Shown in pieces: positions 5,825 to 35,275 of a stretch of 64,000 nucleotides of DNA. This stretch comes from Bacillota bacterium. Its GTDB lineage: Bacteria > Bacillota > Negativicutes > Sporomusales > CTSoil-080. The position numbers and the translations under genes are program-made. Positions within the stretch are counted from its first letter, which is position 1, and each line of letters begins with the position of its first letter. The stretch is from positions 2,753 through 66,752 of the forward strand of contig JAGGAE010000015.1 of assembly GCA_017889725.1 (NCBI GenBank), in the 5' to 3' direction. Below the pieces are notes generated by a model. It was not told the DNA's origin. It saw only the letters and a program-made list of their open reading frames with translations, and did no database searches.

Positions 5825-6105
5825 GCCAGGAACAGCGTTTGAAAAGTTCCGGTGTACCAACCGGTTTGTATATAATTCAACCGTAGCATCATCCACAGCT
5901 TTCCACAGCAATCTTTCGTCTGTTTAGGCAACTCTCTGCCACCTTCAGCGAGCTTCAGACAATTACTGTATTACATCAGTTCTCACCTGTTGCAGTTTAA
6001 GGAGAGCGTTTCAAGACGTTACCCTATCATTCCACTCTTCACCATATCAATTCTTCAAGGTTTTTACCTTGAGCCTAGGCCTTTTCAGCTAGGAACGTTT
6101 CGCAC
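5825..6105 (-). mobile_element. Group II intron 5' fragment (domain I only; no RT ORF or domain V/VI seen)
   Basis: Starts GTGCGAAACGTT exactly where the polymerase frame breaks; followed by hairpins CCTAG-N10-CTAGG and TCAAGGT-AAAA-ACCTTGA and a GGTAAC tetraloop motif; distal boundary approximate. Confidence 0.65.
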
Positions 6106-18430: not shown

Positions 18431-18448
18431 TATGAATCTCCCTTCATT

Positions 18449-18550
18449 AGCCTCCGGAGTTAGCTGACGGGCTGGGACAGAAGAGTTGCCCCACTTGCTA
18501 AAGTTTCGCCCCAAAAAGTGGTTCCCCCGTACCTGAGCGGGATTCGGCTT
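18449..18550 (-). ncRNA. Cyclic di-AMP (ydaO/yuaA) riboswitch
   Basis: GCCGAATCC..AGGTACGGGGGAACC..TTTTGGGGCGAA..GGGGCAACTC..CCCAGCCCGTCAGCTAACTCCGGAGGC directly upstream of a cell-wall hydrolase. Confidence 0.92.
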
Positions 18551-18621
18551 TTTACGCTCATTATATTCTATTCTCGGTATTTTGGAAATTTCCTTCCTTA
18601 ATTTCCATTTTTATTCTTAAT

Positions 18622-31876: not shown

Positions 31877-31967
31877 TATCAGACCGCCTCCTTTTATTCT
31901 TCCACTACCTATAGTATGAAGCAAGTTATTACTTTTAAACCACCGCCAAAGGAATCGGATTACTTTT

Positions 31968-31996
31968 ATTGTAAAATAACGTTTCTTAATTGTCAA
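31968..31996 (-). promoter_or_regulatory. sigmaA promoter of trxA
   Basis: TTGACA-17-TACAAT. Confidence 0.75.
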
Positions 31997-32035
31997 GAAA
32001 CTTCCTTTTATTTTTCCATTTTCTCGTATTTCAGT

Positions 32036-32064
32036 AACAAAAACTTGCCCCTTTACGTACTATA
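32036..32064 (+). promoter_or_regulatory. sigmaK-type promoter
   Basis: AACA-N16-CGTACTATA. Confidence 0.5.
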
Positions 32065-32096
32065 TACAACTAAAGATTATCGAAGGAGGCATATCT

Positions 32097-32213
32097 ATGA
32101 ATCTCCGGAATTTCGGTTCTTGCGGGTTTGGCGGCAACGGTTTTTTTATTGTCATCATCATCATCATTGCACTTTTCTTCTTCTTTGCTGAAGAAGAATC
32201 CAGTTCACTATAA
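32097..32213 (+). CDS. 38-aa Gly-rich single-TM peptide (YjcZ/SscA-like spore peptide; not in ORF track)
   Basis: AAGGAGG RBS; MNLRNFGSCGFGGNGFFIVIIIIIALFFFFAEEESSSL*. Confidence 0.75.
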   Translation: MNLRNFGSCGFGGNGFFIVIIIIIALFFFFAEEESSSL

Positions 32214-32344
32214 TCATCAACTTTTTAGCTTACAACACCTCCTTGTTGTCAAGGCCGGAGAATCGATCCCCGGCCTTTAGCCTTACAAAGTCAAAAGGAA
32301 TCGGCACCCTGTATGGGTATCGATTCCTCATGAAAATCAAAATC

Positions 32345-32563
32345 TTACATATCTGACATCATGTGGTGTTCCGGCATCATGTGGTGTTCATGGGGCATGC
32401 CACAACGTGGACAGCACGTATGGCGGCGATGTTCATACTCATGCCCACAGTGCGGGCATACCTTCACCATCACGTAACAACACTGTTCATACACCTTGAA
32501 TTTCATTTCTCCCACGCATTTTTTAACGCAGCATTTAGGTCTTTTACATCCATCATAGTACAT
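32345..32563 (-). CDS. 72-aa Cys/His/Met-rich protein, probable spore coat or metal-binding
   Basis: AAGGAGG RBS; several CC and CPxC motifs and a repeated MP(H)EHH tail. Confidence 0.75.
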   Translation of the reverse strand: MYYDGCKRPKCCVKKCVGEMKFKVYEQCCYVMVKVCPHCGHEYEHRRHTCCPRCGMPHEHHMMPEHHMMSDM

Positions 32564-32588
32564 TATCTAGCATTCCTCCTTTCTATTA

Positions 32589-32617
32589 TACAATATGCAA
32601 AAGACCATCAACATGTT
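32589..32617 (-). promoter_or_regulatory. sigmaK-type promoter
   Basis: AACA-N16-CATATTGTA. Confidence 0.65.
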
Positions 32618-32662
32618 ATGGTTAATTTTTGCGTTTCTGGTTGCCCTTATCACCTTATCGGT

Positions 32663-32691
32663 AACACAATCTCCCCCATGCACATACTGTA
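32663..32691 (+). promoter_or_regulatory. sigmaK-type promoter
   Basis: AACA-N16-CATACTGTA. Confidence 0.65.
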
Positions 32692-32730
32692 TAGTAAGTT
32701 AAAAACAATCTGACAGGAGGTAAGTATTGC

Positions 32731-33312
32731 ATGAGTATTTTTCGCGAACTATTAAATCCCGCTCTAGTCCGAGAATTAGAGCGCGAACTCAATACTGACG
32801 TACTGCTCTTTGGATTTGATGGTTTTACTTACTTTGGTAATCTGCAAGCCATTGACGATTGTCGAATTGCCATCTTATCCCCCGCTATAGAAGCGGAAAG
32901 CAGCAACGTAGAAATTTTAACCCCCGGCGGCGAGCTTGTTGAAGTAAAATTTGCCCGGGTCGATTTGTGGCAGCTTGTCGGCAAGGGAACCAGCATCGTT
33001 TCCGATCCCATTCATTGTTCGCCCCCCAGCGGTCCTGTTGTTTTACAACAACTCGGCCAGGACGCAGAACGTCAGGAAAGCAGCGATCTTATCCGCTGGC
33101 TCTTACGCCAGCTTGGCGATGACGTTGCTTTAACGACCTTGGGAGGCTTCCTCTTTGAAGGTACCCTAAGCGAAATAGATGATTGCTTGGCTATTTTGTC
33201 GGTGGAAGATGTATTTCTTCCCGGCACCAGTTCCAGTATATCCAGTGACGCTTTACGCTCTGTAGTCGTGAACTTAAAAGCCCTGACATCCGTTTCCGGT
33301 TCAACCAGTTAA
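32731..33312 (+). CDS. Hypothetical acidic protein with two internal repeats, probable spore coat protein
   Basis: LFGFDGFTYFGNLQAIDDCRIAILS versus LTTLGGFLFEGTLSEIDDCLAILS; Ser-rich C-terminus; GGGAGG RBS. Confidence 0.75.
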   Translation: MSIFRELLNPALVRELERELNTDVLLFGFDGFTYFGNLQAIDDCRIAILSPAIEAESSNVEILTPGGELVEVKFARVDLWQLVGKGTSIVSDPIHCSPPSGPVVLQQLGQDAERQESSDLIRWLLRQLGDDVALTTLGGFLFEGTLSEIDDCLAILSVEDVFLPGTSSSISSDALRSVVVNLKALTSVSGSTS

Positions 33313-33326
33313 ATGCTTTTTTCATG

Positions 33327-33358
33327 AAAAGACCCGGTTTAACCGCCGGGTCTTTTTT
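33327..33358 (+). terminator. Rho-independent terminator
   Basis: AAAAGACCCGG-N8-CCGGGTCTTTTTT. Confidence 0.7.
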
Positions 33359-33387
33359 CATGATTACCAGGGAAAGGAGACATTGCT

Positions 33388-34212
33388 ATGCTTTTGGCTG
33401 TCGAATATCTCGGAGAAGTAGGCGTTGGCGTAACCGCGCCGCATTTTTTCCGTGCGGACAACGGACATATTTATGTCGTTAAATTAAAAAACAATCGTCT
33501 CGGCCCAACCGTCTTAGTCAGCGAGTATGTCGCTGCCCGCCTCGGACATATCCTAGGACTTTGCTTTCCTCCCAGCGACCTCATCCACCTGTCATCTGAA
33601 TTCATCCTGCAAACACCACTCTTTTCTTCCGGCGTTGATCCAGGACTGCATTTTGCCTCCCGTTATCTTACTCCAACACAGCACCTCACAAAAGAAACCC
33701 TCTCACTGGCCTCTAATGTTAATGAAATGGCCGGTGTTCTTCTCTTCGACCATATGTTTCATAACCTTGACCATATCTCAAACAAGCGCAATCTATTATT
33801 GCACCGTGAAGAAACCGGCTTCAAAATATACTCCATTGACAACTCGCATCTCTTCAAAGGAGGGCGCTGGACAGTCGCCAAGCTTGATAAATTAGCGAGA
33901 AAGACAAAAATATATACCCAGGGTTTATTTAGGGTTTTACTCAACGATTTCCTTGCCGTGCAAGATTTTCTCCCTTACTTGGATAATGCAAATAATTTGA
34001 CTGACCCCCTCATCACAGAACTTGTGCAAGATATTCCGGCGGAGTGGCTGACCGAAGAGGACGAACGCGCTGCTTTAATACGGCATATCCAAGCCCGCCG
34101 GGACATTGCCGGACAGCTCTTTCACAAGCTTTTAAAACACATTCCGACCAGTCGCGGCGGAACAAAAACTTTTACCCCTCGCGTCATACGACACACCCTA
34201 AAAACTAAATAA
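33388..34212 (+). CDS. HipA-like (PI3K-like fold) protein kinase
   Basis: GVGVTAP..YVVK, SEYVAARLG, FDHMFHNLDH..NLL, SIDNS. Confidence 0.75.
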   Translation: MLLAVEYLGEVGVGVTAPHFFRADNGHIYVVKLKNNRLGPTVLVSEYVAARLGHILGLCFPPSDLIHLSSEFILQTPLFSSGVDPGLHFASRYLTPTQHLTKETLSLASNVNEMAGVLLFDHMFHNLDHISNKRNLLLHREETGFKIYSIDNSHLFKGGRWTVAKLDKLARKTKIYTQGLFRVLLNDFLAVQDFLPYLDNANNLTDPLITELVQDIPAEWLTEEDERAALIRHIQARRDIAGQLFHKLLKHIPTSRGGTKTFTPRVIRHTLKTK

Positions 34213-34288
34213 TACCAGCTTTTTCCCAAGCATCACAAAGCCCCTTCGGCAGGCTAAACCGAAGGGGCCAAACAATAAAACCCGTTTA

Positions 34289-35275
34289 TTACTCTTTTAG
34301 ATTGTTTTCCCGGTACCATTGTATAGTCTTAACCAATCCCGCCTCTAATGGCGTGGCGGCGACAAACCCGAACTGCCGGTGGGCTTCGCCGGTATCGAGA
34401 CACCGTCTGGGCTGACCGTTAGGTTTCGCGGCATCCCAAGATATCGTTCCGGAAAACCCGGTCAAGCGGATTATCATCGCTACCAAATCCTTAATGGATA
34501 CCTCCTGCCCAGTCCCCAGATTTACCGGCTGCACCCCTTCATAACGCTCCGTGGCCGATACAATACCTTCTGCAGCATCTTTGACATACAAAAATTCACG
34601 ACTCGCTGATCCGTCCCCCCACACATTCACAGTAGCTAATCCCTGCTCTTTTGCCTCCAGGCACTTGCGAATAAGCGCCGGAATGACGTGTGACGTTTCC
34701 GGGGAAAAGTTATCACCCGGCCCGTATAAATTGGCCGGCATTAAATAAATCACCTTAAACCCATACTGTTTTCTGTACGCCTGCCCTTGGACCAGCATCA
34801 TCTTTTTTGCTAACCCATAGGGAGCATTGGTTTCTTCCGGGTAACCGTCCCAGAGGCTTTTCTCGGAAAAAGGTACTTCACAATACTTCGGGTAGGAACA
34901 GACCGTTCCAATCGCGACAAACTTTCTTACCCCATATATACGCCCATATTCGATGAGCTGCGTCCCCATCATAAGGTTATCATAAAAATACTTGCCTGGA
35001 TTTTGCATATTGGCCCCAATACCGCCAACAACTGCCGCCAGATGAATAACAATATCCGGTTTAAGCTTCTCATACAACCGAATAACATTTTCGGCCTTGG
35101 TTAAGTCATATTCCGCACTACGGGGAACAAATATTTCCGAGCACCCTCTACTTTTGAGTTTTTCCACAACCTGAGACCCAAGAAAACCCGCTCCGCCGGT
35201 GACTACCACCCTGAGGTGCTCTAAATTCTCCTCACCAACCCCGTCACACCTTTTATTCAACAGCATGATGCACAC
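34289..35275 (-). CDS. fcl: GDP-L-fucose synthase
   Basis: [53 protein letters not shown]; exact start uncertain. Confidence 0.92.

Follow-up and report, generated by a model that had tools for sequence, protein, structure and literature searches.

The closest functional analogue of the locus described here is the CotH-CotB-CotG system of the outer spore coat of Bacillus subtilis. In that system, the atypical kinase CotH is encoded beside abundant coat proteins, with late mother-cell control and several promoters and terminators within a small cluster (bioRxiv 10.1101/469122). The present locus lies in a 64,000-nucleotide (64-kb) stretch of DNA, hereafter the window, from a Bacillota bacterium of the order Sporomusales in the class Negativicutes (contig JAGGAE010000015.1, positions 2,753 to 66,752). 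Segment 32036-34212 of the window carries four open reading frames (ORFs). Two of these alone make up the conserved core: a gene for a protein with two predicted Sm/LSm-like domains, termed the Sm-repeat protein, and a gene for a kinase of the HipA_2 family. Together they look like an undescribed spore-envelope module. No gene of the locus is a member of the CotH-CotB-CotG system; judging from sequence, the pair appears to be a conserved, sporulation-linked variant on the theme of a coat kinase plus a coat protein. To our knowledge, the spore coat of Negativicutes, which are diderm endospore formers, has hardly been studied.

The kinase gene (33388-34212, + strand) encodes 274 amino acids. The product, which a preliminary description made from the sequence had called HipA-like, indeed matches the Pfam family HipA_2 (PF20613), with an E-value of 5.7e-19 and 68.8 bits against a cut-off of 27; the match extends over residues 8-228 and covers positions 5-214 of the 240 in the model. 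The same family is found in all 120 kinase relatives among the matches listed. A structure model of the protein (predicted local distance difference test [pLDDT] of 87.2) has a kinase fold, and the nearest solved folds returned by Foldseek are those of PI4KII-alpha, CtkA, Fam20, actin-fragmin kinase and HipA (template-modeling [TM] score by query 0.40-0.56). Residues K32, E46, D121, H122, H125, D128 and N135, together with D151-N-S-H154, are invariant in 22 aligned kinases. From their places in the predicted secondary structure, K32 would be the ATP-binding Lys of strand beta3 and E46 its Glu partner in helix C, D128 and N135 would be the Asp and Asn of the catalytic loop, and D151 the metal-binding Asp. 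The unusual catalytic loop that was remarked on earlier, NLDH rather than NxDR, is real: the window reads HNLDH where at least 90% of relatives read HNxDR, and the R129H change is lineage-specific. Because all catalytic residues are kept, the kinase is probably active.

Several described kinase systems can be compared with this protein. A Pfam scan at E≤1 gave HipA_2 alone; thus the kinase is not of the CotH type. Spore coats also contain kinase-fold components of the CotS/YtaA type, which belong to a different kinase-like family from HipA_2, and the Pfam scan of the four proteins encoded in the segment gave no match to that family. With HipBA and HipBST the kinase has in common a distant fold and the catalytic Asp/Asn loop (Shewanella HipA, TM score by query 0.40-0.50). 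It differs from them in being much shorter, in the terminator that lies between the genes, and in having no helix-turn-helix (HTH) antitoxin among the neighbors scanned; Pfam and NCBIfam searches of the three neighboring proteins found no HTH family. The two-gene HipA-like/DUF3037 system (PDC-M66, a defense candidate; DS-6) contains a kinase of the same Pfam family, and the PADLOC model PDC-M66A matched the kinase with an E-value of 4.6e-11 and 40.4 bits. No PADLOC match was obtained with the Sm-repeat protein. The HipA-like kinase of PDC-M66 is described as toxic unless the DUF3037 protein is present (PMC12548924). In contrast to that system, the defining partner is missing here: DUF3037 (PF11236) occurs in none of 41 genomes searched, the window's own genome included, and a control genome with HipA_2 also has DUF3037. 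The distribution of the present kinase, moreover, follows sporulation, and its neighbors are of coat type. The earlier statement that the kinase has neither a HipB nor a DUF3037 partner thus agrees with these scans.

The gene that precedes the kinase (32731-33312, + strand) encodes the 193-amino-acid Sm-repeat protein, whose predicted domains span residues ~20-90 and 115-190. Both repeats noticed at first inspection are conserved domains in an alignment of 25 family members, along with a variable low-complexity linker and a conserved PGTSSSIS stretch (PGIDVISS in genome G003). In this alignment the linkers are rich in Gly/Ser and in Cys/Pro, and many relatives have Cys-rich C-termini. An AlphaFold2 model of the protein contains two domains, each a helix plus five strands, with a mean pLDDT of 84.8. 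When this model was compared with the Protein Data Bank (PDB) by using Foldseek, 19 matches were obtained at E≤1e-3, and all among the matches listed are Sm/LSm proteins. TM scores by target are 0.6-0.79, and human and yeast Sm proteins superimpose with a root-mean-square deviation of 1.5-1.8 Å over ~71 columns. By sequence, LSM matches are sub-threshold in 11 of the 25 members (best E-value 7.4e-4), and a search of PDB sequences with the family profile gave a single match at chance level (E 0.45). The presence of two Sm-like repeats is thus supported as a prediction, and the Sm-like fold that structure prediction was proposed to check is what it returned. Relative to Sm, LSm and Hfq proteins, the predicted fold of each repeat matches, but a single chain carries two such domains, joined by a disordered linker, and no curated LSM model matched above threshold.

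The Sm-repeat family is small and has no Pfam model. Its named relatives are all from Negativicutes, and Joint Genome Institute (JGI) records label the family "snRNP-like." Relatives of the Sm-repeat protein and of the kinase come from Sporomusa, Pelosinus, Thermosinus, Propionispora, Lucifera and other spore-forming Negativicutes. A profile search of 1.84 billion representative proteins with the Sm-repeat alignment yielded 58 clusters at E≤1e-3, of which 11 were scanned. Four long matches composed of multiple stretches proved to be IPT/TIG-repeat proteins and were discarded as false positives; the other seven, weak matches over the full length, contained no Pfam family. In one relative (genome G030), single-domain Sm genes, N-domain then C-domain, occur as a tandem duplicate (L015:3847-5798). 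A gene for a 125-amino-acid Cys-rich zinc-ribbon protein lies between the two single-domain pairs, a YmaF-family gene (PF12788) is nearby, and the genome has no kinase A, the type encoded next to the Sm-repeat gene.

The Sm-repeat protein had been likened to CotB, with a Ser-rich tail as part of the comparison. That tail is not borne out. The Ser cluster is the eight-residue PGTSSSIS loop, short and conserved, and it lies inside the second predicted Sm domain; the C-terminal 30 residues of the protein are predicted strands (pLDDT 85-92). Unlike CotB, the protein has no disordered, tandem Ser/Lys/Arg repeats, as judged from its sequence and from the alignment of 25 members, and no CotG-like partner is encoded at the locus. 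Homology to CotB-type domains was not detected: DUF2642 matched one of the 25 members, with an E-value of 0.19, the profile search did not reach such proteins, and DUF2642 was found in none of the three Bacillales genomes that hold the distant kinase loci L084-L086. The term "Sm-like repeats," which the preliminary description applied to CotB, does not occur in the text of the CotB/CotG/CotH paper (bioRxiv 10.1101/469122). In a protein-language-model comparison, the nearest clusters are named "Spore coat protein B" (CotB/YwrJ-like) and CotA-like, at a score of 0.85, which is under the level at which a name would be assigned. What stands of the CotB analogy is a loose functional likeness.

The arrangement of the two genes is conserved. 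A fused Sm-repeat gene of ortholog grade (at least 52% identity) is present in 22 of 61 related genomes, and in 21 of these the kinase gene comes next in the same orientation. This arrangement is shared by at least eight families of the class. A second sample, of 67 kinase loci from Negativicutes fetched with a profile, overlaps in species with the 61 genomes, so the two sets are not independent. The Sm-repeat gene is directly upstream of the kinase in 23 of these loci (group A), a gene for an SH3/SPOCS protein is upstream in 40 (group B), and four were not assigned to either group, two of them at contig ends. In a quick maximum-likelihood tree (IQ-TREE), all 24 group-A kinases and those of loci L028 and L037 form one clade, supported at 99% by the Shimodaira-Hasegawa-like approximate likelihood ratio test, which is nested among the group-B kinases. 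Conservation of the neighborhood, which had been suggested as a check and whose absence had been named as a refutation, was thus found for the Sm-repeat gene and the kinase gene, but not for the two other small genes of the segment, which are at this locus in three genomes only.

The paralogous kinase B occupies a setting that is itself related to the spore coat. In the window's own genome (G000, whose assembly is 65% complete) and in genome G029, kinase B directly follows yabG (PF05582, E 2e-112) and two genes whose products are SipL/SPOCS proteins (PF12673); one of these products has an SH3 domain. In G000 these genes are on contig C90 (L014:4064-7589), where kinase B is at the contig end. 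At this locus the first SPOCS gene is preceded by an AC-N17-CATATATATA site, and kinase B by a terminator and then AC-N16-CATATACT. Of 35 kinase-B loci, 17 have a CATA[TC]AnT box upstream of the kinase gene and none has it in antisense, against a mean of 0.66 in shuffled sequence. In C. difficile, a YabG-like protease is controlled by sigmaK, and SipL is a partner of SpoIVA (PMC3789822; bioRxiv 10.1101/2022.02.25.481979).

Three sigmaK-type promoter-like sites are found in the segment. The first (32036-32064, + strand), AACA-N16-CGTACTATA, precedes a gene for a 38-amino-acid peptide and has a corresponding site in the two closest relatives (L002 and L003). The second (32589-32617, - strand) precedes a gene for a Cys/His-rich protein and is kept in the same two relatives, and the third (32663-32691, + strand), GTAACA-N-CATACTGTATAGTA, precedes the Sm-repeat gene. 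The pattern AACA-N16-CRTANNNTA has exactly these three matches in the 64-kb window, 26-40 nucleotides upstream of the small-gene starts and each oriented toward one of the three genes, as had been described. Shuffled versions of the window contain 0.34 matches on average, and 1 of 100 shuffles reaches three. Because the motif was derived post hoc from these very sites, the shuffle figure alone is weak, and the weight comes from relatives. A generic AC-N17-CATANNNTA pattern matches four times in the window, versus 1.8 times expected, and two of the four matches are in this segment.

In relatives, AC-N16-18-CATAnnnTA is upstream of the Sm-repeat gene in 22 of the 23 group-A loci and in none in antisense, where shuffling gives a mean of 0.225; the remaining locus has a CATATAATGTA variant of the box. 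The box is visible in all 12 of the loci L001-L012, and the consensus across families is GTAACA-N-TCATACAGTATAGTA. The combination of -35 AC with -10 CATA is the signature of sigmaK, whereas sigmaE has ATA (PMC3789822). The sites upstream of the Sm-repeat gene show the sigmaK consensus in its elements (-35 AC, -10 CATAnnnTA), in their spacing of 16-18 nucleotides and in placement. From this sequence evidence, the site is probably a late mother-cell promoter. At L037:3870-4001, kinase A stands directly behind a promoter of the type that precedes Sm-repeat genes (CATATAGTATAGTA), with no adjacent Sm-repeat gene.

A spacer of 75 nucleotides separates the Sm-repeat gene from the kinase gene. It contains a hairpin that resembles an intrinsic terminator (33327-33358, + strand), with the stem AAAAGACCCGG...CCGGGTCTTTT followed by a T-run, a folding energy of -28.1 kcal/mol and a z-score of -4.1, ~30 nucleotides before the kinase start. 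The hairpin is visible in all eight loci that were folded, and its stem sequence is conserved among relatives. In a crude scan for a stem plus a T-run, which replaced a stricter pattern that had matched 3 of 23 loci, a GAC(C/T)CGG...CCGGGTC hairpin with a T-run ends 22-44 nucleotides before the kinase start in 16 of the 23 group-A loci; the scan misses L022 and L030, even though the equivalent spacer of L011 clearly shows a hairpin. An Rfam search of positions 31900-34400 at E≤1 found nothing, so the hairpin belongs to no curated family. In a stretch of the spacer at one related locus (L019:3850-3980), the RNA reads abound in variant letters and loose ends, which would fit a repeat element present in multiple copies.

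The terminator had been taken as a caveat, in that it separates the repeat gene from the kinase. It is present and conserved, but its position argues for attenuated co-transcription rather than for separation. Downstream of the hairpin only the ribosome-binding site of the kinase remains, which leaves no room for a separate kinase promoter; thus, transcripts that reach the kinase gene must cross the hairpin. This layout suggests that the two genes are co-transcribed with attenuation, which would give much structural protein and little enzyme.

Gene distribution also connects the kinase with sporulation. Of ten morphogenetic coat proteins of B. subtilis, only SpoIVA is reported to be universal (bioRxiv 10.1101/2022.02.25.481979). 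In a class-wide sample of 200 Negativicutes genomes that are at least 90% complete, SpoIVA (PF09547) is present in 56, and all 56 have the kinase. Among the 144 genomes that lack SpoIVA, a strong kinase match was obtained in two (G075, which is 92% complete, and G081) and a marginal match of 20 bits in one. The match in G081 (G081:C177:56588-57367) has two in-frame stops, in a genome that is 93% complete and in which SpoIVA was not found; this broken kinase may have decayed once sporulation was lost. Counted by family, SpoIVA and the kinase occur together in 16 and are both missing in 13. In the 61 related genomes, 47 have both and 12 have neither; one genome has SpoIVA only (G058, 87% complete), and the incomplete genome of the window is the one with the kinase only. 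In genome G020, whose family otherwise sporulates, SpoIVA is missing together with the kinase, the Sm-repeat protein and the Cys/His protein. Because related genomes are not independent, the co-occurrence of SpoIVA and the kinase is strong circumstantial evidence and not a statistic.

The co-occurrence with SpoIVA, the conserved sigmaK-type promoter and the paralogue in a yabG/SipL coat locus all support a link to sporulation. Accordingly, it is very likely that the Sm-repeat gene and the kinase gene form a module linked to sporulation, as the preliminary description had proposed. RNA sequencing adds little to this conclusion. In the raw reads of three runs of one study, grown under conditions that may not have included sporulation and with the strand convention taken from flanking genes, the sense depth over the Sm-repeat gene and the kinase gene of L019 is at most 1.4, and expressed neighbors on either strand reach 30-370. 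Because a neighboring fixC-like gene is silent too, this silence is not specific and does no more than leave the link unrefuted. A literature search of mostly open papers without supplements found no paper that links HipA-type kinases to sporulation. The text of a survey of Firmicutes sporulation genes contains no occurrence of HipA, although the family might appear in its tables by COG number (bioRxiv 10.1101/2022.02.25.481979).

We consider the chances slightly better than even that the locus is a sporulation-specific mother-cell module, in which a two-Sm-domain envelope protein is accompanied by a low-abundance HipA_2 kinase that acts on envelope proteins. A sigmaK-type promoter would drive strong transcription of the gene for the two-Sm-domain protein in the mother cell, and this protein would most likely be a structural component of the spore envelope (coat). 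The conserved intrinsic terminator would let a small fraction of transcripts read through into the kinase gene. Kinase clade A may have arisen by duplication of an older sporulation-linked kinase, the one encoded behind yabG and two SipL/SPOCS genes. The kinase would probably phosphorylate envelope proteins during coat assembly, and the PGTSSSIS loop of the neighboring Sm-repeat protein is one candidate site. In the lineage of the window, two further genes with late promoters, for a transmembrane peptide and for a Cys/His zinc-ribbon protein, would have joined the locus. In this scheme we infer the dependence on sigmaK, the read-through, the coat location, the kinase activity and the substrate from the features described above; phosphorylation of any neighbor is conjecture. 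That the Sm-repeat protein is the substrate of the kinase seems doubtful. A prediction of the complex of the two proteins scored 0.00 in a run without controls, which speaks neither for nor against binding.

A number of observations count against this proposal. Some concern the pairing of the genes: in genome G003 the Sm-repeat gene is followed by purD and kinase A is missing; at L037, conversely, kinase A is present with no Sm-repeat gene next to it; and where the Sm gene is split into single-domain versions, the genome carries one kinase only, of the B type. Others concern the link to sporulation. The promoter assignment is based on a match to a consensus, co-occurrence was scored across kin, losses of sporulation within the class may have been few, and the silence of the fixC-like gene deprives the RNA data of specificity. 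Finally, the proteins themselves raise doubts. One of five AlphaFold2 models of the Sm-repeat protein is confident and the others have pLDDT values of 48-50. Position 129 of the kinase, an Arg in at least 90% of sequences, is occupied by His both in the window and in the relative closest to it. The Ser cluster is a poor mimic of the disordered target region of CotB because it is inside a predicted folded domain.

A more specific version of the proposal is that a toxin-type HipA_2 kinase, of the kind otherwise found in HipA/DUF3037 defense systems, was domesticated as a mother-cell coat kinase in an ancestor of the spore-forming Negativicutes and then duplicated, and that one copy remained beside yabG and the SipL/SPOCS genes whereas the second became tied to the Sm-repeat protein, a new coat protein that it phosphorylates. 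We regard this version as tentative and rather unlikely in full.

The substrate of the kinase might alternatively be a sugar, a glycan or a lipid at the spore surface, with the Sm-repeat protein merely a co-expressed coat protein. Among the folds nearest to the kinase are indeed those of the lipid kinase PI4KII-alpha, of Fam20-type kinases and of the lipopolysaccharide-core kinase WaaP. In the window, moreover, a GDP-fucose-synthase-like epimerase and a GDP-mannose dehydratase are encoded downstream of the kinase gene, in convergent orientation. The kinase search also surfaced three distant HipA_2 genes of Bacillales, each of which overlaps a GT1 gene that is followed by genes for UGPase and UDP-glucose dehydrogenase. 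However, just 3 of 23 group-A loci have the gmd motif next to the gene pair; the linkage to GDP-sugar genes is thus lineage-specific and was dropped as a conserved feature. In addition, the HipA-family kinases characterized in the HipA and HipT papers are protein Ser/Thr kinases, and the context of kinase B consists of coat-morphogenesis proteins, not of sugar genes. A non-protein substrate therefore appears improbable. In two of the Bacillales loci (L084:1706-4741 and L086:1357-6837), the kinases are distant (23-25% identity) and their genes overlap the GT1 glycosyltransferase gene by 4 nucleotides, with the UGPase and UDP-glucose dehydrogenase genes following; a gene for a 359-amino-acid protein with no Pfam family and a Lys/Arg/Glu-rich tail precedes the cluster.

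Still less probable is a toxin-antitoxin-like pair co-opted for sporulation, in which the Sm-repeat protein would neutralize or buffer a growth-arresting kinase and might time the shutdown or lysis of the mother cell. The match to the PDC-M66 kinase model, whose kinase is toxic without DUF3037, would fit such a pair, as would the order of the genes, in which the kinase comes after the smaller protein, much as in hipBA. Against this, the conserved terminator between the genes argues that there is no translational coupling, and no HTH protein (among the scanned neighbors) or DUF3037 (in 41 genomes searched) is present. Kinase A at L037 has no adjacent Sm-repeat gene, and kinase B has an entirely different protein encoded upstream. 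The distribution, too, tracks SpoIVA and is not patchy as in mobile defense genes.

The two genes could also be neighbors without a functional link, two sporulation genes brought together by chance or by shared regulation only. Exceptions in both directions (G003 and L037) favor such an arrangement, but it is hard to reconcile with adjacency and orientation kept across at least eight families, with a monophyletic kinase clade A that is tied to the Sm-repeat gene, and with a spacer whose hairpin is itself conserved; we give it little credence. Least likely of all, the Sm-repeat protein would be an LSm/Hfq-type RNA-binding sporulation factor regulated by the kinase, in a regulatory rather than structural module: the predicted Sm/LSm fold, the sub-threshold LSM matches and the "snRNP-like" JGI name point that way, but the variable low-complexity linkers and the Cys-rich C-termini of many relatives are what would be expected of cross-linked coat proteins, the single-domain genes of L015 are co-located with Cys-rich and YmaF-family genes, and the protein-language-model neighbors, although under the naming level, are spore-coat clusters.

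Around the core pair, the window has two small genes of narrower distribution. The transmembrane peptide of 38 amino acids (32097-32213, + strand) has a Gly-rich N-terminus, an Ile/Phe hydrophobic stretch and an acidic/Ser tail, and its reading frame is kept in L002 and L003. It presumably resembles the YjcZ-like tiny sporulation peptides, and no Pfam or NCBIfam model matched it at E≤1. The Cys/His-rich protein of 72 amino acids (32345-32563, - strand) contains a CPxCGHE...CPxCG zinc-ribbon motif, and its zinc-ribbon matches in Pfam are sub-threshold only (DZR_2, E 0.0012). A search for homologous proteins returned the query alone; relatives were seen only by a six-frame genome search, which found them in 37 of the 61 genomes. 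Both genes are at the Sm-kinase locus only in G000, G001 and G002, which belong to one family.

Elsewhere, the Cys/His homologue is 2.3-4.5 kb upstream of kinase B and divergent from the SPOCS genes. Of 35 group-B loci, 18 contain the strict Cys/His motif, and the window protein matches the copy at the kinase-B locus of G029 with a BLASTP E-value of 8e-10. A Cys/His homologue is thus near both kinase loci, and a layout in which the Cys/His gene diverges from a gene followed by the kinase recurs at both.

The upstream flank of the segment consists of ordinary neighbors, a thioredoxin gene and a two-component system. At one related locus (L005:2274-2918, - strand, genome G016), a 214-amino-acid protein with a Pro-rich stretch is encoded upstream of the Sm-repeat gene; overlapping frames of this gene are rich in His/Thr/Met repeats, and it may encode another coat-type protein. 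Elsewhere in the window, Rfam models identify a group II intron domain (5872-6055, - strand; RF02004, 95.6 bits) and a c-di-AMP riboswitch (18433-18559, - strand; RF00379, 86.9 bits).

The analysis thus adds two gene families whose distribution in the class follows sporulation, those of the kinase and of the Sm-repeat protein, together with a conserved late promoter. The Sm-repeat gene and the kinase gene form a simple, testable pair of an enzyme and its neighbor. Should the kinase prove active in the mother cell, a developmental role would be added to a kinase family that is known as a defense or persistence toxin. If domestication as a coat kinase did occur, phosphorylation of the spore coat would have been invented independently in diderm spore formers, in parallel to CotH, CotB and CotG of Bacillus.

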